Shown one piece after another: positions 898 to 64,000 of a stretch of 64,000 bases of DNA. Each line of letters begins with the position of its first letter. Position 1 is the first letter of the stretch. The notes below the pieces were generated by a model. It ran no database searches. It was given only the letters and a program-made list of their open reading frames with translations, and was not told the origin of the DNA. This DNA comes from Escherichia phage TH09, in sequence record MT446387.1; one strand, written 5' to 3'. The translations under genes and the position numbers were made by a program.

Positions 898-2994
898 ATG
901 ATGGAACTTATTACAGAATTATTTGACGAAGATACTACTCTTCCGATTACAAACTTAAATCCAAAGAAGAAAATACCGCAAATTTTTTCAGTTCACGTTG
1001 ATGATGCAATTGAACAGCCAGGCTTTCGTTTATGCACCTATACATCTGGAGGTGATACTAATCGCGATTTAAAGATGGGCGATAAAATGATGCATATTGT
1101 TCCTTTTACATTAACTGCTAAAGGTTCAATTGCTAAATTAAAAGGTCTTGGTCCAAGCCCAATTAATTATATCAATTCAGTTTTTACTGTTGCAATGCAA
1201 ACTATGCGTCAGTATAAAATTGATGCCTGTATGCTCCGTATTCTTAAGTCTAAAACCGCTGGTCAAGCTCGACAAATTCAAGTTATTGCTGATAGACTTA
1301 TCCGTAGTCGTTCAGGTGGTAGATACGTCCTTCTTAAGGAACTCTGGGATTACGATAAAAAGTATGCATATATTCTTATACATCGCAAAAATGTATCACT
1401 AGAAGACATTCCAGGAGTTCCGGAAATTAGTACCGAGCTCTTTACTAAAGTTGAATCAAAGGTCGGTGATGTTTATATCAATAAAGATACTGGAGCTCAA
1501 GTAACTAAAAATGAGGCAATTGCTGCATCTATTGCGCAAGAAAACGATAAACGTTCTGACCAAGCTGTAATCGTTAAAGTTAAAATTTCCCGTAGAGCAA
1601 TTGCACAAAGTCAATCATTAGAATCTTCTAGATTTGAAAGTGAATTATTCCAAAAGTATGAATCTACCGCAGCTAATTTCAATAAACCTGCTACGGCTCC
1701 TTTAATTCCCGAAGCAGAAGAAATGAAGCTTGGAATTAATTCATTAGCTTCTAAAACTAAAGCAGCAAAAATCATTGCCGAAGGAACTGCAGATGAACTT
1801 CATTATGACTATAAATTCTTTTCAAAAAGTGAGGTTAATGAAGTTTCTGAAAAAATTAAAGATGTAATTCTTAATGCGATTAAAAATGAACCAACTACTT
1901 CAATAAAATGTTTAGAGAAATACGCAGCAGCTGTAAATCAATTCTTTGAAGATTATAAAGATAAATGGCTTGCTAATCATAATAAAAATCGTAAAGGACA
2001 ACCAGATGAAGTCTGGGAAGAAATAACTAAAAATTCCTGGAACGCAGCAAAAACTAAATTCCTCAAACGAATGATTTACAGTTTTTCTGGAATTGGTGCT
2101 GGTCCAATGATTGATATTACTATTGCCCGCGATGGTTCTAAATATACTCCATCACAAAAGCGTGGCATTAGAGAATATTGCGGTTCAGGATATACTGACA
2201 TCAATAATCTTCTTTTAGGTCGTTACAATCCAGAACGATATGATGTAATGAGTGAAAAAGAAATTGAATCTGCTATAAATAACTTAGATTCAGCTTTTGA
2301 AAATGGTGACCGCATACCGGAAGGCATCACAGTTTATCGTGCTCAAAGTATGACTGCTCCTATATACGAAGCACTAGTTAAAAATAAAGTGTTCTATTTC
2401 AGAAATTTTGTATCTACTTCTTTAACTCCTATCATTTTTGGACGTTTTGGAATTACACATGCTGGTATTGGTCTTTTAGAACCAGAAGCTCGTAATGAAT
2501 TGACAGTTGATAAAAATGAAGAAGGAATAACTATTAATCCAAACGAAATAAGAGCGTATAAAGAAAATCCTGAATACGTTAAAGTTCAAATAGGATGGGC
2601 AATTGATGGAGCTCATAAAGTTAATGTTGTATATCCAGGAAGTCTCGGAATAGCAACAGAAGCTGAAGTTATTCTACCGCGCGGATTGATGGTCAAAGTT
2701 AATAAAATAACTGATGCTTCTAATAATGACGGAACCACGTCTAATAATACAAAACTCATTCAAGCTGAAGTTATGACCACGGAAGAGCTCACCGAATCGG
2801 TAATCTATGATGGAGACCATTTAATGGAAACCGGCGAAGTAGTTGCAATGACAGGTGATATTGAAATAGAAGACAGAGTTGACTTTGCATCATTTGTTTC
2901 ATCAAATGTTAAACAAAAAGTAGAATCATCTCTTGGAATTATTGCGTCTTGCATAGATATTACAAACATGCCTTACAAGTTCGTTCAAGGATAA
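898..2994 (+). CDS. alt: Alt ADP-ribosyltransferase, capsid-packaged and injected
   Basis: 698-aa ORF; N-terminus MMELITELFDEDTTLPITNL and overall sequence match recalled T4 Alt; ART-like motifs (FYFRNFVSTSL, EAEVILPRG); TATAAATA late promoter 20 nt upstream. Confidence 0.9.
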   Translation: MMELITELFDEDTTLPITNLNPKKKIPQIFSVHVDDAIEQPGFRLCTYTSGGDTNRDLKMGDKMMHIVPFTLTAKGSIAKLKGLGPSPINYINSVFTVAMQTMRQYKIDACMLRILKSKTAGQARQIQVIADRLIRSRSGGRYVLLKELWDYDKKYAYILIHRKNVSLEDIPGVPEISTELFTKVESKVGDVYINKDTGAQVTKNEAIAASIAQENDKRSDQAVIVKVKISRRAIAQSQSLESSRFESELFQKYESTAANFNKPATAPLIPEAEEMKLGINSLASKTKAAKIIAEGTADELHYDYKFFSKSEVNEVSEKIKDVILNAIKNEPTTSIKCLEKYAAAVNQFFEDYKDKWLANHNKNRKGQPDEVWEEITKNSWNAAKTKFLKRMIYSFSGIGAGPMIDITIARDGSKYTPSQKRGIREYCGSGYTDINNLLLGRYNPERYDVMSEKEIESAINNLDSAFENGDRIPEGITVYRAQSMTAPIYEALVKNKVFYFRNFVSTSLTPIIFGRFGITHAGIGLLEPEARNELTVDKNEEGITINPNEIRAYKENPEYVKVQIGWAIDGAHKVNVVYPGSLGIATEAEVILPRGLMVKVNKITDASNNDGTTSNNTKLIQAEVMTTEELTESVIYDGDHLMETGEVVAMTGDIEIEDRVDFASFVSSNVKQKVESSLGIIASCIDITNMPYKFVQG

Positions 2995-2997
2995 ATC

Positions 2998-5055
2998 ATG
3001 GAACTTATTACAGAATTATTTGACGGCGCTTCGGCGCCGGTTGTTAACTTAAATCCTAAGCATAAAATACCGCAAATTTTTGCTATTCAAGCCGGCGAAG
3101 AAAGTGTGCTTCCTGGATTTAGATTTTGTACATACACCTCTGGCGGTGATACAAATAAAAACGTTAAGCCAGGCGATAAAATGATGCATATCGTAATGAT
3201 AGGTGTCAATGAGAAACTATCGCTCGTTAAACTTAAAAACTTGGGTGGAAATCCAATTGGTGTCATTAATGCGGTTTTTGATACTGCTCTTCAAACAATG
3301 AAACAGTATAAAATTGATGCATGCTTATTCCGCGTACTAAAGAGTAAAACAAATGGCGCAGCTCGTCAAATGCAAGTTATTGCTGACCGTTTAGTACGTA
3401 CTAAAGGAGCAGGTCGATATGCTCTTTTAAAGGAAATCTGGGATTACGATAAAAAGTATGCATATATTATGGTTTACCGTAAAAATGCCAATTTAGAAGA
3501 CATTCCAGGTGTACCTCCTATTTCAACTGAGTTATTCACAAAAGTTGAATCAAAGGTTGGTGATGTTTATGTAGACGTTAAAACAGGTAATGCTGTTCCT
3601 AAAGCTGTTGCTGTTGCTGCTTCTATTGCCTTAGAAAATGATAAGCGCACGGATCAAGCTGTTATTCAGAAAACTAAAATTAGTCGTCGATTAGCAGCAC
3701 AAGCTCAATATTCTACTGTTGATGCTTCACTTCAGGGTGATAGCTTCGCTGCTAAGAAATATCAAGAGTTTGAATCTAAAGTTCCGGTATATAAAGCAGA
3801 AGGACCAATGAACTCCGGGGTTATCCAGATTGGTTCAAACTTTAACAAAGGAGCTATCGGTGGTATGAGAAGTGCTTCTCGTTTTAAATCTAATGATTAT
3901 GAACTAGAAAGTTTCCGAAATCATATTGCATTAGCCCATGCGCGTTTACGTGATCCATCTATCAAGTTGCAGAGCGATATAACATATCAAGGTTCTCAAG
4001 AATATTTAAAGAATAAAGAATTCTTTGATTATAAAACTGATAAAATTTTAAGCGATCTTGCTGACATTAATATTTCTAATAGCTTTGATGTTATTAAGAA
4101 AATTATCAATGATTTAGTTAAAGGTTCTAAAGCTACACCAGATGAAAAGACAGCTATTATTCAATTTGTCATGAATGGCATTTATAAATTGATTAATGAA
4201 TCTGCCGCTCAGGCATATGAATACGCGAGCACCGAAGTAACTCCAAAAGGATTAACTCAAGCTGAATCTGATGTAATTGAAGATTATTGTGCAGATTCAT
4301 ATGTTGAAATGAACTCGTTCCTTTTGGGTAAACCAGATTCTACCCGCGAAGAATATATGGAACGAGCTATTAAACATATTGAGACGCTTGATTCTGCATT
4401 CGCTAAAGGTTCAGTTCTTCCTCCAGGAACTACACTTTACCGTGGACAAGAAGTTACATTTAAAACTTTGCGTCATAACATTGAAAACAAAATGTTCTAT
4501 TTCAAGAACTTCGTATCCACATCGCTTAAACCAAATATCTTCGGTGAGCATGGTAAAAACTATATGGCCTTAGATGATTCCGGCGCAGTATTTTCTGGTG
4601 AAGGAGAAGGTTCCGTTGATGCAGAAGATTTGATGCATATGGGTAGTCATTCTACATATGCTAGTGAAGATGCCGAAACTAGCGTGGGTATGGTAATTAA
4701 AGGAGCTGAGCGAATCAAAGTTATCGTTCCAGGTCATTTATCAGGATTTCCATCAGAAGCTGAAGTTATTCTACCACGTGGAATTTTACTGAAGATTAAT
4801 AAAGTAAGTACGTACTTTATGAAAGAAACTGCTTATAACAAGTATCTAATCGAAGGTACAATCGTTCCTCCTTCTGAACAATTAGAGGAATCAGTATATG
4901 ATGGCGACCATTTGATGGAAACTGGTGAAGTTCGTCCAATGACTGGATTTAATCAATTCCTTGTCGAAGAATCAAAAGAAGAGGAAAACGAAGTTTCTCA
5001 AATCTTAGCTTCTTTGGTTAACATTAACGGAATGTCTAAAAAGTTCAAAATGTAG
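2998..5055 (+). CDS. Alt-like ADP-ribosyltransferase paralog
   Basis: 685-aa ORF starting 4 nt after the alt stop. N-terminal ~220 aa and C-terminal ART region (FYFKNFVSTSL, SEAEVILPRG, YDGDHLMETGEV) are clearly paralogous to the upstream Alt; the middle region is divergent. Confidence 0.8.
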   Translation: MELITELFDGASAPVVNLNPKHKIPQIFAIQAGEESVLPGFRFCTYTSGGDTNKNVKPGDKMMHIVMIGVNEKLSLVKLKNLGGNPIGVINAVFDTALQTMKQYKIDACLFRVLKSKTNGAARQMQVIADRLVRTKGAGRYALLKEIWDYDKKYAYIMVYRKNANLEDIPGVPPISTELFTKVESKVGDVYVDVKTGNAVPKAVAVAASIALENDKRTDQAVIQKTKISRRLAAQAQYSTVDASLQGDSFAAKKYQEFESKVPVYKAEGPMNSGVIQIGSNFNKGAIGGMRSASRFKSNDYELESFRNHIALAHARLRDPSIKLQSDITYQGSQEYLKNKEFFDYKTDKILSDLADINISNSFDVIKKIINDLVKGSKATPDEKTAIIQFVMNGIYKLINESAAQAYEYASTEVTPKGLTQAESDVIEDYCADSYVEMNSFLLGKPDSTREEYMERAIKHIETLDSAFAKGSVLPPGTTLYRGQEVTFKTLRHNIENKMFYFKNFVSTSLKPNIFGEHGKNYMALDDSGAVFSGEGEGSVDAEDLMHMGSHSTYASEDAETSVGMVIKGAERIKVIVPGHLSGFPSEAEVILPRGILLKINKVSTYFMKETAYNKYLIEGTIVPPSEQLEESVYDGDHLMETGEVRPMTGFNQFLVEESKEEENEVSQILASLVNINGMSKKFKM

Positions 5056-52664: not shown

Positions 52665-52922
52665 ATGAAAACTTTCAAAGAGTTTGCTACAAAAACTACT
52701 ATCACCGAATCTTCCCACGGTATGGAAGTAAAGCTTGGAATGGCTTTAGCTGAAGCTGAGCGTCTTTTCTCTCGTATTAAAGAACTTGCTGCTGCAGTCG
52801 ATCCTTCATCTTTTAAAGGAGACCAAACTAAAGTTAAAGCGCTTTTAGCATTATGCTCAGATGCAGGAGAAATTGCTAAAAATGGTTCTAAGATGAAGAA
52901 ACGATTAGAAGATTTAAAATAA
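52665..52922 (+). CDS. internal-protein-like protein with CTS-like N-terminus (85 aa)
   Basis: N-terminus MKTFKEFATKTTITE resembles the T4 capsid targeting sequence (MKTYQEFIAE); preceded by an early promoter/stem-loop cassette. Confidence 0.6.
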   Translation: MKTFKEFATKTTITESSHGMEVKLGMALAEAERLFSRIKELAAAVDPSSFKGDQTKVKALLALCSDAGEIAKNGSKMKKRLEDLK

Positions 52923-52998: not shown

Positions 52999-53232
52999 AT
53001 GAAAACTTTCAAAGAGTTTATCGCTGAATCTTCTGATGTAAAAGTTGAGTTTATTTACACCGGCAAGAAAGATAAAATGGGTGAAATGCCTCATGGAGTT
53101 CTTCGTGATGCATTAGATAATTTCGGTCAACTCGCCGCAGAAGATTACGGTGATAAAATTGTTGTTACTGGTCCTGCTGCAGTTATTGAAAAATGGGCAG
53201 CAGAAAATAAATCAATTTTTCGTAAAAAATAA
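52999..53232 (+). CDS. internal-protein-like protein with CTS-like N-terminus (77 aa)
   Basis: Track ORF starts at a TTG inside the promoter; ATG at 52999 gives MKTFKEFIAESS..., same arrangement as the upstream gene. Confidence 0.55.
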   Translation: MKTFKEFIAESSDVKVEFIYTGKKDKMGEMPHGVLRDALDNFGQLAAEDYGDKIVVTGPAAVIEKWAAENKSIFRKK

Positions 53233-54753: not shown

Positions 54754-54826
54754 TGGGAATTAGCCAAGTTGGTAAGGCACTGGATTTTGATTCCAGGATG
54801 CAAAGGTTCGAGTCCTTTATTCCCAG
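54754..54826 (+). tRNA. tRNA-Gln (anticodon TTG)
   Basis: Hand-folded cloverleaf: acceptor tgggaat/attccca, anticodon loop ttTTGat, T-loop ttcgagt. Confidence 0.85.
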
Positions 54827-54827
54827 C

Positions 54828-54914
54828 GCGAGAATGGTCAAATTGGTAAAGGCACAGCACTTAAAATGCTGCGGAATGATTTCCTTGTGGGTTCGAGTCC
54901 CACTTCTCGCACCA
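54828..54914 (+). tRNA. tRNA-Leu (anticodon TAA), type II, CCA encoded
   Basis: Acceptor gcgagaa/ttctcgc, anticodon loop ctTAAaa, long variable arm, T-loop ttcgagt. Confidence 0.85.
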
Positions 54915-54919
54915 AATTT

Positions 54920-54993
<74 letters not shown>

Positions 54994-55003
54994 ATTTAAT
55001 TTA

Positions 55004-55077
55004 CTCCGTGTAGCTCAGTTTGGTAGAGCGCCTGATTTGGGATCAGGAGGTCCAAGGTTCAAATCCTTGTATGGAGA
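55004..55077 (+). tRNA. tRNA-Pro (anticodon TGG)
   Basis: Acceptor ctccgtg/tatggag (two G-U pairs), anticodon loop ttTGGga, T-loop ttcaaat. Confidence 0.8.
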
Positions 55078-55079
55078 CT

Positions 55080-55169
55080 GGAGGCGTGGCAGAGTGGTTT
55101 AATGCACCGGTCTTGAAAACCGGCAGTCGCTCCGGCGACTCATAGGTTCAAATCCTATCGCCTCCGCCA
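55080..55169 (+). tRNA. tRNA-Ser (anticodon TGA), type II, CCA encoded
   Basis: Acceptor ggaggcg/cgcctcc, anticodon loop ctTGAaa, long variable arm, T-loop ttcaaat. Confidence 0.85.
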
Positions 55170-55174
55170 GTTTT

Positions 55175-55250
55175 GCTGATTTAGCTCAGTAGGTAGAGCA
55201 ACTCACTTGTAATGAGAAGGTCGGCGGTTCGATTCCGTCAATCAGCACCA
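55175..55250 (+). tRNA. tRNA-Thr (anticodon TGT), CCA encoded
   Basis: Acceptor gctgatt/aatcagc, anticodon loop ctTGTaa, T-loop ttcgatt. Confidence 0.85.
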
Positions 55251-55251
55251 A

Positions 55252-55326
55252 GGCCCTGTAGCTGGAAGGTTCAAGCAAGCGACTCATAATCGCCAGATGG
55301 TGGTTCAATTCCACCCAGGGCCACCA
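55252..55326 (+). tRNA. tRNA with anticodon CAT, probably the AUA-reading tRNA-Ile of T-even phages (could be Met)
   Basis: Acceptor ggccctg/cagggcc, anticodon loop ctCATaa, T-loop ttcaatt. Confidence 0.75.
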
Positions 55327-55339
55327 AATTAAGAATTAA

Positions 55340-55426
55340 GGGGAGTTATCCCGTAGAGGTAGCGGTGTGGACTGTAAATCCATTGTCATTGCGACTCGGG
55401 TGGTTCGACTCCATCACTCCCCACCA
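55340..55426 (+). tRNA. tRNA-Tyr (anticodon GTA), type II, CCA encoded
   Basis: Acceptor ggggagt/actcccc, anticodon loop ctGTAaa, long variable arm; the D-arm fold is slightly atypical. Confidence 0.7.
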
Positions 55427-55430
55427 ATTT

Positions 55431-55505
55431 GGATGTGTAGCTCAATGGCAGAGCGATCGCCTGTTAAGCGATTGGTTATAGGTTCGAATCCTATCACGTC
55501 CGCCA
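55431..55505 (+). tRNA. tRNA-Asn (anticodon GTT), CCA encoded
   Basis: Acceptor ggatgtg/cacgtcc, anticodon stem atcgc/gcgat with loop ctGTTaa, T-loop ttcgaat. Confidence 0.8.
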
Positions 55506-55509
55506 AATA

Positions 55510-55585
55510 CGAGGCATAGCTCAGAAGGAAGAGCAAGGACCTTCTAAGTCCTGGGTCGTAGGTTCGATCCCTACTGCCTCGACCA
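55510..55585 (+). tRNA. tRNA-Arg (anticodon TCT), CCA encoded
   Basis: Acceptor cgaggca/tgcctcg, anticodon stem aggac/gtcct with loop ctTCTaa, T-loop ttcgatc. Confidence 0.85.
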
Positions 55586-55589
55586 AACA

Positions 55590-55930
55590 AGAAGCCGGGT
55601 CGCTACCGGTAAGTCGTCGGACTGATGTTCCCTGGGTAAGGACTGGCATTAACAAATCTTTACGATCGGTTAATGCCCCCTTACATCACAGCAGAAACGG
55701 CGCACCGAATTATCGATTCGAGGAAATATCTTTGCCGTAAGCCGAGTAGCGTTTTTGACGGAACGTTCGGATATGGTTGAGATATGGCCTTTTAAAATAT
55801 TAAGTAGCGTCAACTGCTTAATAACCGGGTTCGAATCCCGGCGTTTCGTACAAACACTTGCCTTAGCAGGTGGAACCCCGACAAGGTTGCCGCAAGGCTT
55901 AGCCCCGACCGAAAGGTTGGGGCTTTTTGG
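55590..55930 (+). ncRNA. structured non-coding RNA region directly after the tRNA cluster (one or two small stable RNAs; boundaries uncertain)
   Basis: About 340 nt without a plausible ORF, GC-richer than its surroundings; 8-bp hairpin gcattaac/gttaatgc near 55646..55677; tRNA-like T-arm ccggg-ttcgaat-cccgg at 55825..55841; ends in a GAAA-tetraloop terminator. The position corresponds to the small stable RNAs of T4. Confidence 0.5.
55902..55930 (+). terminator. hairpin (GAAA loop) plus T-run ending the small-RNA region
   Basis: gccccgacc-gaaa-ggttggggc followed by ttttt. Confidence 0.7.
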
Positions 55931-55978: not shown

Positions 55979-56452
55979 ATGAAATCATATGCTCAATTTT
56001 TAAATGAAGCGGTGTTAAATGAAGCATCTAGCACCGAAATTCAAGCTGTCGCAAAAGCTGCCATTGCCGCGGGTAAATATTCCTATAAAGATGCTTCCGA
56101 TGAATCACGATTCCAATTTGCTCGTGATATGAAAGCCGAAGGATTTACAGGGAATGCAGTTAGTATGGCTTGGAAAAGTTTAGTTGCTACTGGAGCTGCT
56201 TTTGCAAAGGCTTCAGGTAAACCTGCTCCTAAAGCAGATCCTAAAGTCGCACAAGAGAAAAATATTGTTAAAGGAATTATCTCCAAATATGAAGCTATCC
56301 TTAAAGAGCTTTTAGTAATTAAAACTGAAGGCCAAAAGCTAGCTCGTGCTTATAGTTTCAAAGATAACCCACATGTTCACTCTCTTGAATATGTTGAAGA
56401 CATCCAAAAAATTATTAAAGACCGCATTTGGTCTGCTAAACAAATCAAATAA
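55979..56452 (+). CDS. internal-protein-like protein with CTS-like N-terminus (157 aa)
   Basis: N-terminus MKSYAQFLNEAVLNE; TATAAATA 41 nt upstream; hairpin terminator downstream. Confidence 0.6.
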   Translation: MKSYAQFLNEAVLNEASSTEIQAVAKAAIAAGKYSYKDASDESRFQFARDMKAEGFTGNAVSMAWKSLVATGAAFAKASGKPAPKADPKVAQEKNIVKGIISKYEAILKELLVIKTEGQKLARAYSFKDNPHVHSLEYVEDIQKIIKDRIWSAKQIK

Positions 56453-56570: not shown

Positions 56571-57134
56571 ATGAAAACCTACGCCGAATTTTTAACCGAA
56601 GCAGCAAAATTACCATCTGAAGCAGATCTTACTAAAGTATTCTTCCACTTGGACCCAAAAGACCGTGGCGATTTTCTTAAGTGGAAAGCTAAAGCTATTG
56701 AAATGTACAACATCGATAATAGTTCTTTTACAATGAGTCAAGAAAATAAATTCAATAAAGCATTTTTCAAAATTTCTAAGAAATTGGCATCTGGCGCTCA
56801 GGTTCCTAAATCTGCATTAGCTACTCCTGAACGCGCACCTGTTAAAATTTCTAAGAATATGTTCGACACTAAAAAATACGTTAATGCTTTGAATAAAGCT
56901 CTTGATGCATTGGATGATGCAAAGAAGGCAGCCCGTGATCTTCAAGACGTGTACACCGATTTTGATCGTAAAACTAAAGGTTCTATTTCAAATAGCGAAC
57001 GCAATAGTGTAAGTGTTTATTCTGATAGCCTTGACGTTCTTGGCGATGCGTATACTGAAATTAAAAATCGTATTAACACTGCATCTAAGCTAAAAGCTGC
57101 CGCAGAAGCTATAATAACTAAACTAGATAAATAA
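56571..57134 (+). CDS. internal-protein-like protein with CTS-like N-terminus (187 aa)
   Basis: N-terminus MKTYAEFLTEAAK; hairpin terminator downstream. Confidence 0.6.
   Translation: MKTYAEFLTEAAKLPSEADLTKVFFHLDPKDRGDFLKWKAKAIEMYNIDNSSFTMSQENKFNKAFFKISKKLASGAQVPKSALATPERAPVKISKNMFDTKKYVNALNKALDALDDAKKAARDLQDVYTDFDRKTKGSISNSERNSVSVYSDSLDVLGDAYTEIKNRINTASKLKAAAEAIITKLDK

Positions 57135-61091: not shown

Positions 61092-61110
<19 letters not shown>
60622..61110 (+). CDS. small membrane protein, paralog C (162 aa; soluble N-domain plus two predicted TM helices)
   Basis: ATG overlaps the upstream stop (ATGA); tail ending FITECRKLK. Confidence 0.55.
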
Positions 61111-62079
<969 letters not shown>

Positions 62080-62083
62080 AGTT

Positions 62084-62120
62084 GTTTACTTTCTCCTAGA
62101 ATTGTGATAGTATATTCACA
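62084..62120 (+). promoter_or_regulatory. early-type promoter with stem-loop (tgtga / tcaca) enclosing the -10 (denV)
   Basis: GTTTAC at 62084; -10 region gatagtatatt inside an inverted repeat. Confidence 0.55.
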
Positions 62121-62138
62121 GTTAATTGGAGGGATAAA

Positions 62139-62555
62139 ATGACTCGTATTAATTTGACTTTAGTATCTGAACTTGCTGATCAACATTTAATCGCAGAATA
62201 CCGTGAATTGCCGCGTGTTTTTGGTATAGTTCGTAAGCATGTGGCAAACGGTAAGCGCGTTAAAGATTTTAAAATATCTTCCGAGTTTATTTTAGGTTCT
62301 GGTCATGTTACGTTCTTTTACGATAAGTTAGAATTTTTGCGAAAGCGTCAATTAGACATTATAACGGAATGCTTAAAACGCGGGTTCAGTATAAAAGATA
62401 CTGAAGTTCCTGACATCAGCGATATTCCAGTAGAATGGAAAAATGATTATAATCCATGCAAATCAGCTATTAAATTGAGTCAACAACGACTTGATGAAAA
62501 AATTTTAATGAAACCACATTGGTATAAGTATTACGGTAAAAATATTTACATTTAA
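62139..62555 (+). CDS. denV: endonuclease V (pyrimidine dimer DNA glycosylase)
   Basis: 138-aa ORF matching recalled T4 endo V ([17 protein letters not shown]...). Confidence 0.9.
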
Positions 62556-62564
62556 AGGAAACAT

Positions 62565-63038
62565 ATGAAAACATATCAAGAATTTATCACTGAAGCAGCT
62601 ATTAATTCTCAAATTATTGCTGAATCTTTTACTGATCTTTTGAAATTTAAAAAAGGTCAAAAAATCACTGCTGTATTGGATGATGGTACAGAAGTTGAGA
62701 TGGATGTACAGGGATATAATTATGCAGTAGATGGAAAATTGTATAATAAATCTCATGCTAAATTTGATTCATTTGACGACTTTGTTAATACAGTTGAAGA
62801 TGAAAAAACTCGTCGATCCATTGCAACTGGTGATGCTAAGGTTCTTATGGCACATGGTCATGAACGCATTCGCGCTAAACAGAATAAAATGGGCGAAGAT
62901 AATTTCGCATTAGTTGGTTATCAATCTGGTAAACAAACTTATGGTTATCAACGTACTGCTACCATGTATAATAAAAATGGTAAAATTGCCTTTGTGAATA
63001 GTAAAGGTTCTATTCAGTACGTTAAATCGTTCAAATAA
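62565..63038 (+). CDS. internal-protein-like protein with CTS-like N-terminus (157 aa)
   Basis: N-terminus MKTYQEFITEAAINS is almost the canonical T4 capsid targeting sequence. Confidence 0.6.
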   Translation: MKTYQEFITEAAINSQIIAESFTDLLKFKKGQKITAVLDDGTEVEMDVQGYNYAVDGKLYNKSHAKFDSFDDFVNTVEDEKTRRSIATGDAKVLMAHGHERIRAKQNKMGEDNFALVGYQSGKQTYGYQRTATMYNKNGKIAFVNSKGSIQYVKSFK

Positions 63039-63179
63039 TATGGGAACAAGCTGGACCTCATGATTCTGTGAGGGATTCCCGCCAACCTGTGATAAGGTCG
63101 AGCCTGAGTGCGGTAATGGGTAAATACAGAAATGGACAATTCATGCGCCACGGAATGGCCCAAATTTAGAGAGAATAAA

Positions 63180-63722
63180 ATGAGAACATTTTTAACTGGT
63201 CCTTATCTATCCCTGATGAATGCTTTTATACACCATTCTGATGCTAGAGTAGAAGAAATTTGTAATAGTGGATTTTATGTACCTGATTCGTCGCATTTAT
63301 TTAAAGAATATTGTACACTTCGACTAGATGGTGGACGTCAATCCGGTAAATCAATTGCTGTGACTAACTTTGCTGCTAATTGGCTGTATGATGGCGGAAC
63401 AGTTATTGTTCTTTCTAATACTTCAGCTTACGCTAAAATTTCTGCAAATAACATTAAAAAGGAATTTTCGCGTTATTCTAATGATGATATACGTTTTCGT
63501 TTATTTACTGATTCTGTGCGCAGTTTTATTGGTAATAAAGGAAGTAAGTTCAGAGGTTTATCGCTTTCGCGAATTTTGTATATAATTGATGAGCCTGTCA
63601 AATCTCCTGATATGGATAAGATTTATAGCGTCCATATTGACACTGTACACTACTGCTGTAATAGTAAATGTTGCATTGGTGGTATTACTCGTCCACAGTT
63701 TTTCGTAATCGGAATGCAATGA
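63180..63722 (+). CDS. hypothetical P-loop protein (180 aa)
   Basis: Track ORF starts at 63132; the ATG at 63180 has a GAGAG ribosome-binding site; Walker A-like GGRQSGKS and Walker B-like ILYIIDEP. Confidence 0.5.
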   Translation: MRTFLTGPYLSLMNAFIHHSDARVEEICNSGFYVPDSSHLFKEYCTLRLDGGRQSGKSIAVTNFAANWLYDGGTVIVLSNTSAYAKISANNIKKEFSRYSNDDIRFRLFTDSVRSFIGNKGSKFRGLSLSRILYIIDEPVKSPDMDKIYSVHIDTVHYCCNSKCCIGGITRPQFFVIGMQ

Positions 63723-64000
63723 TGACAGACACACAGCTTTTCGAATATCTCTATTTTTCGCCAAAAACTATTAAAAATAAATTGGTAAATCATTTTGAAA
63801 TTTTGGCAAATAATAACATTTTAAGCGAATTTTATCCCAAGCAATACAAATTACAAAAAGGCGTATTCAAAGGATGCAGAGTTTTGTGCACTGCTCCTAA
63901 TGCACGGCTAATGAATAAAATTCCATATTTTACCATGGAATTTATTGATGGGCCTTTTAAAGGACTAATCACCCAAAGTTTAATGGCATATGATTCTGAG
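63722..64000 (+). CDS. hypothetical protein, 5' part only (runs off the window end)
   Basis: ATG overlapping the upstream stop (TGATG); open to base 64000 (MTDTQLFEYLYFSPK...). Confidence 0.4.
   Translation, partial: MTDTQLFEYLYFSPKTIKNKLVNHFEILANNNILSEFYPKQYKLQKGVFKGCRVLCTAPNARLMNKIPYFTMEFIDGPFKGLITQSLMAYDSE

Follow-up and report, generated by a model that had tools for sequence, protein, structure and literature searches.

The window, the whole 64,000-nucleotide stretch of Escherichia phage TH09 (MT446387.1) that was analysed, carries on its plus strand the genes nudE, e, denV, ip4 and vs.8 in that order, with denV directly after e and the CTS-bearing gene after denV, as the original prediction had described. 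Starting from the 5′ side, nudE (61092–61547) is followed by e (61585–62079; Phage_lysozyme), the soluble lysozyme gene that forms the conserved left border of an array of internal-protein (ip) cassettes. Two exact matches to the late promoter TATAAATA lie 5′ of e on the plus strand, at 61551 and 61564. The denV gene (62139–62555; Pyr_excise, PHROG 1183) is a divergent allele encoding endonuclease V, a pyrimidine-dimer glycosylase. The right border of the array, also conserved, is a vs.8 homologue (63180–63722; 180 aa from MRTFLTG), which matches PHROG 1488 with E = 1.3e-77 over profile positions 2–177 of 177. The T4 record reads nudE, e, ipIII, ipII, denV, vs.8, all oriented as in the window, and the placement of ipIII and ipII between e and denV, which the prediction had given for T4, is borne out.

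The ip4 gene (62565–63038, plus strand) is an ATG open reading frame that encodes a predicted 157-aa internal-protein precursor of 17.8 kDa with the N-terminus MKTYQEFITEAAINS. An AAGGA Shine–Dalgarno sequence stands 7 nt 5′ of its start codon, which lies 9 nt past the denV stop codon. The product matches Pfam DUF7412 (PF24183) with E = 5.7e-96 and 319.4 bits (cutoff 27), residues 1–157 aligning with profile positions 1–158 of 158, and, likewise over its full length, PHROG 3155, ‘internal virion protein’, with E = 6e-102. The proteins of T2, RB18 and RB33 are 100% identical to it, and a fold search of the BFVD viral structure library returned UniProt Q38388, Ip4 of Enterobacteria phage K3, at 99% identity and a TM of 0.96. 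The names ‘Ip4’ and ‘ipIV’ have already been given to the protein in the records of phages JK1, GiZh and ime09. Repoila and colleagues reportedly named Ip4 in 1994; a full-text literature search on ‘Ip4’ returned no paper, and internal proteins are not discussed in Petrov 2010. Judged by its sequence, the reading frame is ip4, which encodes a known, presumably capsid-packaged ‘internal protein’ of T2-like phages, and is not new.

The 157 residues of Ip4 fit neither T4 protein, as had been noticed, IPII having 100 residues and IPIII 193. In BLASTP alignments the similarity to IPIII is confined to residues 1–13, and that to IPII is a weak, gapped 31% over 77 residues, driven by the CTS; likeness is thus limited to the first approximately 13 residues, with no high identity over the full length. 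By these alignments Ip4 is not an orthologue of T4 IPII or IPIII. The length and the CTS-limited similarity together mark the product as another internal protein, and the locus as rearranged, which is what had been proposed, but the distinct protein is one that already bears the name Ip4.

The protein is common and its family is narrow. By tblastn it is present in 470 phage records; identity reaches at least 99% in 290 and at least 95% in approximately 306. The family comprises 14 clusters at 61% identity or above in a set of 5.8 billion proteins, all 14 with PF24183, and an exhaustive profile search adds three more remote full-length relatives at 34–36% identity.

Gene order and the cassette array

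The window follows T4 closely on both sides of the rearranged segment, with 96% DNA identity through nudE, e and 49 bp beyond (to 62128), and 93.8% identity between window positions 63038–64000 and T4 from the denV stop codon on, into vs.8 and vs.7. The denV allele is more divergent, its protein being 77.5% identical to that of T4 and its DNA 78.6% identical over the first 294 nt, against 94–96% in the flanks, and by this comparison denV is a mosaic patch. The DenV translation contains Thr2, Arg3, Arg22, Glu23 and Arg26, which we take to be the residues with catalytic roles in T4 endonuclease V.

The relation to T2 is simpler. The T2 sequence equals the window minus positions 62129–62549, a 421-bp module that contains the denV ribosome-binding site and denV except its last six bases. 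In T2, ip4 comes directly after e and denV is missing, whereas here the denV module lies between them. A T2 record (PV648364.1, locus 3504–4150) has this locus without denV, and its vs.8 is broken up into two pieces, of 35 and 110 aa.

The junction between denV and ip4 falls in a stretch of shared ip leader and CTS-coding DNA (62537–62600, plus strand) that matches the leaders of T4 ipII and ipIII and a repeat in phage teqsoen. Positions 62537–62596 are 95% identical to the leader and CTS of T4 ipII, and positions 62550–62596 are 93.6% identical to those of T4 ipIII. Phage teqsoen encodes an extra CTS protein of 105 aa between denV and ip4, and this additional cassette has the 49-bp leader and CTS segment corresponding to 62552–62600 at both ends of the insertion. 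The genes of the ip4 locus form an array of cassettes delimited by a common leader and CTS DNA repeat, and 62537–62600 is taken to be the recombination substrate of the array.

The first 28 nt of this stretch (62537–62564) have two roles, forming both the end of denV (the last six codons, K-N-I-Y-I-stop) and, with the Shine–Dalgarno sequence, the leader of ip4. The same 28 nt are identical to the non-coding leader 5′ of T4 ipII (T4 65719–65746), and T4's own denV has a different 3′ end from the window allele. Taken together, this identity and the differing T4 denV end suggest that the T4 ipII leader may descend from a denV–ip joint like that in the window, a joint that is possibly ancestral.

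An early-promoter-like site, TTTACT-N17-TAGTAT (62085–62113, plus strand), follows the e stop codon and overlaps a partial stem-loop in the manner of the promoter/stem-loop (PeSL) elements. An identical sequence stands after e in T4, before ipIII, and in T2, before ip4, as it does before denV in the window, and it fits the PeSL consensus TTTACW-N17-TAYWAT (PMC4122927) except that the −10 hexamer has G, not Y, as its third base. An inverted 38-bp match to the T4 ipIII–ipII spacer is also present. A generic sigma-70 promoter and terminator scan was uninformative and did not list 62085–62113. From its sequence and position, the site is probably the promoter of denV and ip4, serving whichever cassette stands first. 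No exact copy of the late promoter TATAAATA occurs on the plus strand between 61571 and ip4, which suggests that late expression relies on read-through. By analogy, ip4 would be made together with denV, from the early promoter after e and by read-through from the late promoters 5′ of e.

Among sequenced T4 relatives, the layout seen here is the commonest and that of T4 is in the minority. At least 164 phage records have denV joined directly to ip4, and the whole e–denV–ip4–vs.8 stretch is covered to 80% or more in 417 of 710 matching records. The T4-type e–ipIII–ipII–denV block occurs in 31 records, and the 12 among the matches listed are T4 isolates, RB55 and RB59. With 31 records against 164, T4 is the unusual one.

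Outside Tequatrovirus, Ip4 homologues (61–71% identity) stand directly after e, in a locus without denV. This is the arrangement in Salmonella Gelderlandvirus and in Serratia phage SP1, where denV is absent at the locus, and in Klebsiella Jiaodavirus, where the order is e, ip4, an IPIII homologue, a third ip gene and vs.8. In Klebsiella phage FRZ284 (locus 2006–4132), tandem genes encode an Ip4 homologue, a true IPIII homologue and one more CTS protein; the lysozyme gene of this phage is annotated ‘sulfurtransferase’. A Mosigvirus has the order e, CTS protein, denV, vs.8. Since the gene next to e encodes Ip4 or a homologue in T2, Jiaodavirus, Gelderlandvirus and SP1, it looks as though denV, rather than the ip gene, is the module that varies in position and presence.

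The present layout would have arisen by cassette shuffling through the leader and CTS repeat and the promoter/stem-loop elements, with the 421-bp denV module placed, relative to T2, between e and ip4. Comeau, Arbiol and Krisch have proposed the PeSL elements as shuffling sites, and their paper recalls that shuffling within the IP locus had already been described by Repoila et al. 1994 (PMC4122927). The denV–ip4 arrangement is therefore real but ordinary, the protein, its name and the polymorphism of the locus being already in the literature and in hundreds of records. The prediction picked out a hypervariable anti-defence cassette locus, and for itself it changes little.

A structured RNA candidate between ip4 and vs.8

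A G+C-rich stretch of approximately 136 nt (63038–63173, plus strand) separates the ip4 stop codon from vs.8, which starts at 63180. In the T4 annotation, the corresponding DNA opens a vs.8 of 219 aa and supplies its first 39 codons. In the window this N-terminal frame is broken, with a GTG start, an in-frame TAG and an 8-bp deletion, and it is also broken in T2. We reject 63068–63169 as a coding N-terminus of vs.8, because the frame is interrupted in both phages and because Vs.8 has approximately 177–180 aa in other genera.

The stretch has a conserved core of approximately 31 nt, CCTGTRATAAGGTCGAGC-N4-RNGCGGTAA, which recurs across most of the sampled genera, namely Tequatrovirus, Dhakavirus, Gaprivervirus, Tegunavirus, Jiaodavirus, Gelderlandvirus and most Mosigvirus copies. 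The core is also kept in the rV5-like Vequintavirinae, where it is intergenic, near a tRNA cluster and followed by its own promoter-like site, and where the neighbouring genes are unrelated to vs.8. In FRZ284 the element lies between the second and third ip genes, with a partial second copy 5′ of vs.8.

Ten copies from Tequatrovirus and Dhakavirus were used to build a covariance model, which then matched 41 of 42 sources; the matches number 42, one Dhakavirus locus having a second, weak one. Pairing holds in 93.1% of the cells of the alignment so obtained, but in no more than 51% once the partners are slid by 1–3 columns; since the alignment was fitted to the model, these figures are biased in favour of the structure. 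Helix P1 shows changes on both sides in each of its five pairs (for example GGGAA/UUCCC, GGGAG/CUCCC and AAAGG/CCUUU), and one other pair of the core covaries as well (AU 20, UG 8, UA 6, CG 3). The element matched nothing in Rfam 15 or in E. coli genomes, its single-sequence folding z-scores were not significant, and the literature searched for vs.8 and denV yielded only dengue papers. We propose 63038–63173 as a candidate structured RNA element, supported by covariation, unannotated and common to T4-like and rV5-like phages. This by-product may matter more than the ip4 finding, as the element is currently annotated as protein-coding in T4.

The CTS, the cleavage site and the predicted fold of Ip4

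The first ten codons of ip4 (62565–62594, plus strand) encode the CTS, MKTYQEFITE, with a predicted gp21 cut, ITE/A, after Glu10. Nine of the ten residues are those of the T4 CTS, MKTYQEFIAE, which makes the N-terminus almost canonical, as had been claimed. When MKTYQEFIAE was sought in all six frames of the 64-kb window, 3 mismatches being allowed, there were 3 matches, all at the starts of open reading frames and that of ip4 with a single mismatch. Among 13 members of the Ip4 family, spanning 61–100% identity, M1, K2, F7, E10 and E20 are invariant, and the core of the protein has 66 invariant columns. Two of the three remote relatives also start with CTS-like peptides, MNFEQFLNE and MNFKDFLNE, the third being a longer ORF call that is much less CTS-like. 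This pattern of conservation marks the CTS of Ip4 as intact and under purifying selection.

The CTS ends in I8-T9-E10/A11, which fits (L/I)-x-E, the motif of prohead-protease sites. The 95-aa T4 IPI has the ITE tripeptide, likewise before an A, at residues 17–19, consistent with the published processing of its 95-aa precursor to the 76-residue IPI* (PMC3012670). A second gp21 site is possible in Ip4, at IAE/S after the invariant Glu20, which is of the (I/L/M)-x-E type. Cleavage after Glu10 would give a mature protein (residues 11–157) of 147 residues and 16.5 kDa, with a predicted pI of 9.1 and 22 K+R against 18 D+E, and cleavage after Glu20 instead would leave 137 residues.

An AlphaFold model computed with 13 close homologues had a mean pLDDT of 50 and was discarded; adding the three remote homologues raised the mean pLDDT to 83.9, with a pTM of 0.78. 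Residues 1–20 are of low confidence in this model, and from approximately residue 21 on the chain is predicted to form a compact domain of beta strands and three helices. The BFVD fold search returned nothing besides Ip4 itself, and a profile search of PDB sequences gave no match below E = 0.6.

Four further CTS-like reading frames occur in the window, two at the ipI locus (starting at 52665 and 52999) and two after the tRNA cluster (starting at 55979 and 56571). The first two, at 52665–52922 (85 aa) and 52999–53232 (77 aa) on the plus strand, occupy the place of T4 ipI, downstream of 57B. As a pair they match PHROGs 3499 and 8111, families of internal head or virion proteins, and a near-identical promoter-like repeat starting tttcacaaagttgtttaca lies 5′ of each. 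The other two, also on the plus strand, encode proteins of 157 aa (55979–56452, MKSYAQFLNE) and 187 aa (56571–57134, MKTYAEFLTE) that are paralogous, belong to PHROG 2280 (‘unknown function’) and have CTS-like N-termini ending in L-x-E. The 56571 protein occurs in 164 phage records, and the 14 among the matches listed all label it ‘hypothetical protein’. By these N-termini, the two proteins may be unrecognised internal proteins that form a third ip locus. The tRNA cluster itself (54754–55851) has 11 ARAGORN tRNA calls, including Met, Tyr and Asn, and besides these a 94-nt ‘Lys’ call at 55758–55851 that may instead belong to a stable RNA. The T4 cluster has 8 tRNAs with segB among them, whereas that of the window has no segB-sized reading frame.

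Proposed function of Ip4 and comparison with known internal proteins

By analogy with T4 IPI, IPII and IPIII, the CTS would direct the Ip4 precursor into the scaffolding core of the prohead, where the prohead protease gp21 would remove residues 1–10, or possibly 1–20. The basic mature protein of approximately 16 kDa would then be packed with the DNA and injected with it, and would neutralise a first-line host defence that attacks glucosyl-hmC DNA, the target being most probably a variant of a type IV restriction enzyme. Precedents for such activity exist, in that each of Ip1, Ip2 and Ip3 blocks a single GmrSD type IV restriction enzyme, different for each (PMC12373910), IPIII is active from the cytoplasm without its CTS (PMC9391042), and Bas37_0260, a CTS protein, blocks McrBC (HIDEN-SEQ preprint, bioRxiv 10.1101/2025.11.20.689424). 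We are highly confident in the explanation as a whole, in which Ip4 is one of the interchangeable internal-protein cassettes between e and vs.8 in T-even phages, with packaging, anti-defence activity and shuffling included.

The target of Ip4 is not among the GmrSD variants tested so far. Silas et al. assayed ip4–ip10 against a panel of GmrSD variants and saw no reproducible inhibition (PMC12373910, Supplementary Fig. 9), and the GmrSD systems of ECOR17 and ECOR21 restrict T2, whose Ip4 is identical (PMC12373910). If Ip4 were a GmrSD inhibitor, its target would be a variant outside the published panel. By analogy with Bas37_0260 and McrBC, the target could also be another type IV enzyme, or it could belong to a quite different class. 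The fold through which Ip4 could act would be a small beta barrel with helices, without a close relative among solved structures. The joint reading, in which Ip4 inhibits a defence outside the tested GmrSD variants and the denV–ip junction is perhaps an ancestral joint, we put forward only tentatively. As Ip4 is among the commonest internal proteins of Tequatrovirus, it is a sensible candidate for target-finding screens, which bear on phage host range and phage therapy.

Alternatively, Ip4 could be packaged yet have no specific host target, acting as a basic DNA-associated protein that neutralises or organises the condensed genome or aids its ejection. The basic character of the predicted mature protein (pI 9.1, 22 K+R against 18 D+E) agrees with such a role, as do the approximately 1000 internal-protein molecules in each T4 head, with lysines touching DNA phosphates (PMC3012670), and the failure of the published GmrSD panel to give an Ip4 target (PMC12373910). 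The net charge of Ip4 is small, however, and its presence or absence among close relatives (it is absent in T4) better suits an accessory gene in an arms race than a structural requirement. Furthermore, all four CTS proteins of known function are inhibitors of type IV restriction, and the 66 invariant columns among 13 members suggest a specific fold and interface. We consider a purely structural role of this kind unlikely. That the CTS is left over from cassette recombination, and Ip4 an unpackaged cytoplasmic early protein co-expressed with denV, would agree with the position of ip4 9 nt past the early gene denV without a late promoter of its own, and with a CTS-coding DNA that could persist simply as a recombination repeat, but this is very improbable, as M1, K2, F7 and E10 are invariant down to 61% identity, the I-x-E cleavage motif is also retained, and the CTS-like MNFEQFLNE and MNFKDFLNE of homologues at 34–36% identity argue for selection on the peptide and not on the DNA repeat alone.

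An injected anti-defence protein, the reading that we prefer, can be set against several known systems. The nearest is Ip4 of T2 and K3 (Q38388, PF24183, PHROG 3155), which is the same protein, of equal length and with the same CTS, so that only the neighbourhood differs. T4 IPII and IPIII resemble Ip4 in their locus between e and vs.8, in their leader and CTS (as DNA and as protein) and in having a basic mature protein, and they presumably share its route of packaging, gp21 cleavage and injection. They differ in that homology with Ip4 is not detectable past approximately residue 13, in their lengths of 100 and 193 aa against 157 aa, and in their targets, Ip2 acting on the GmrSD of ECOR21 and Ip3 on that of ECOR17, whereas T2, with Ip4, is restricted by both. 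T4 IPI/IPI*, the inhibitor of GmrSD-CT596, has a CTS-type N-terminus and the identical gp21 site, I-T-E/A, and is an injected accessory protein, as is presumed for Ip4. Bas37_0260 is, like Ip4, a CTS-bearing cassette protein of a Tequatrovirus, but it is encoded at a different locus (ipI); its action on McrBC shows that the type IV targets open to ip cassettes extend beyond GmrSD.
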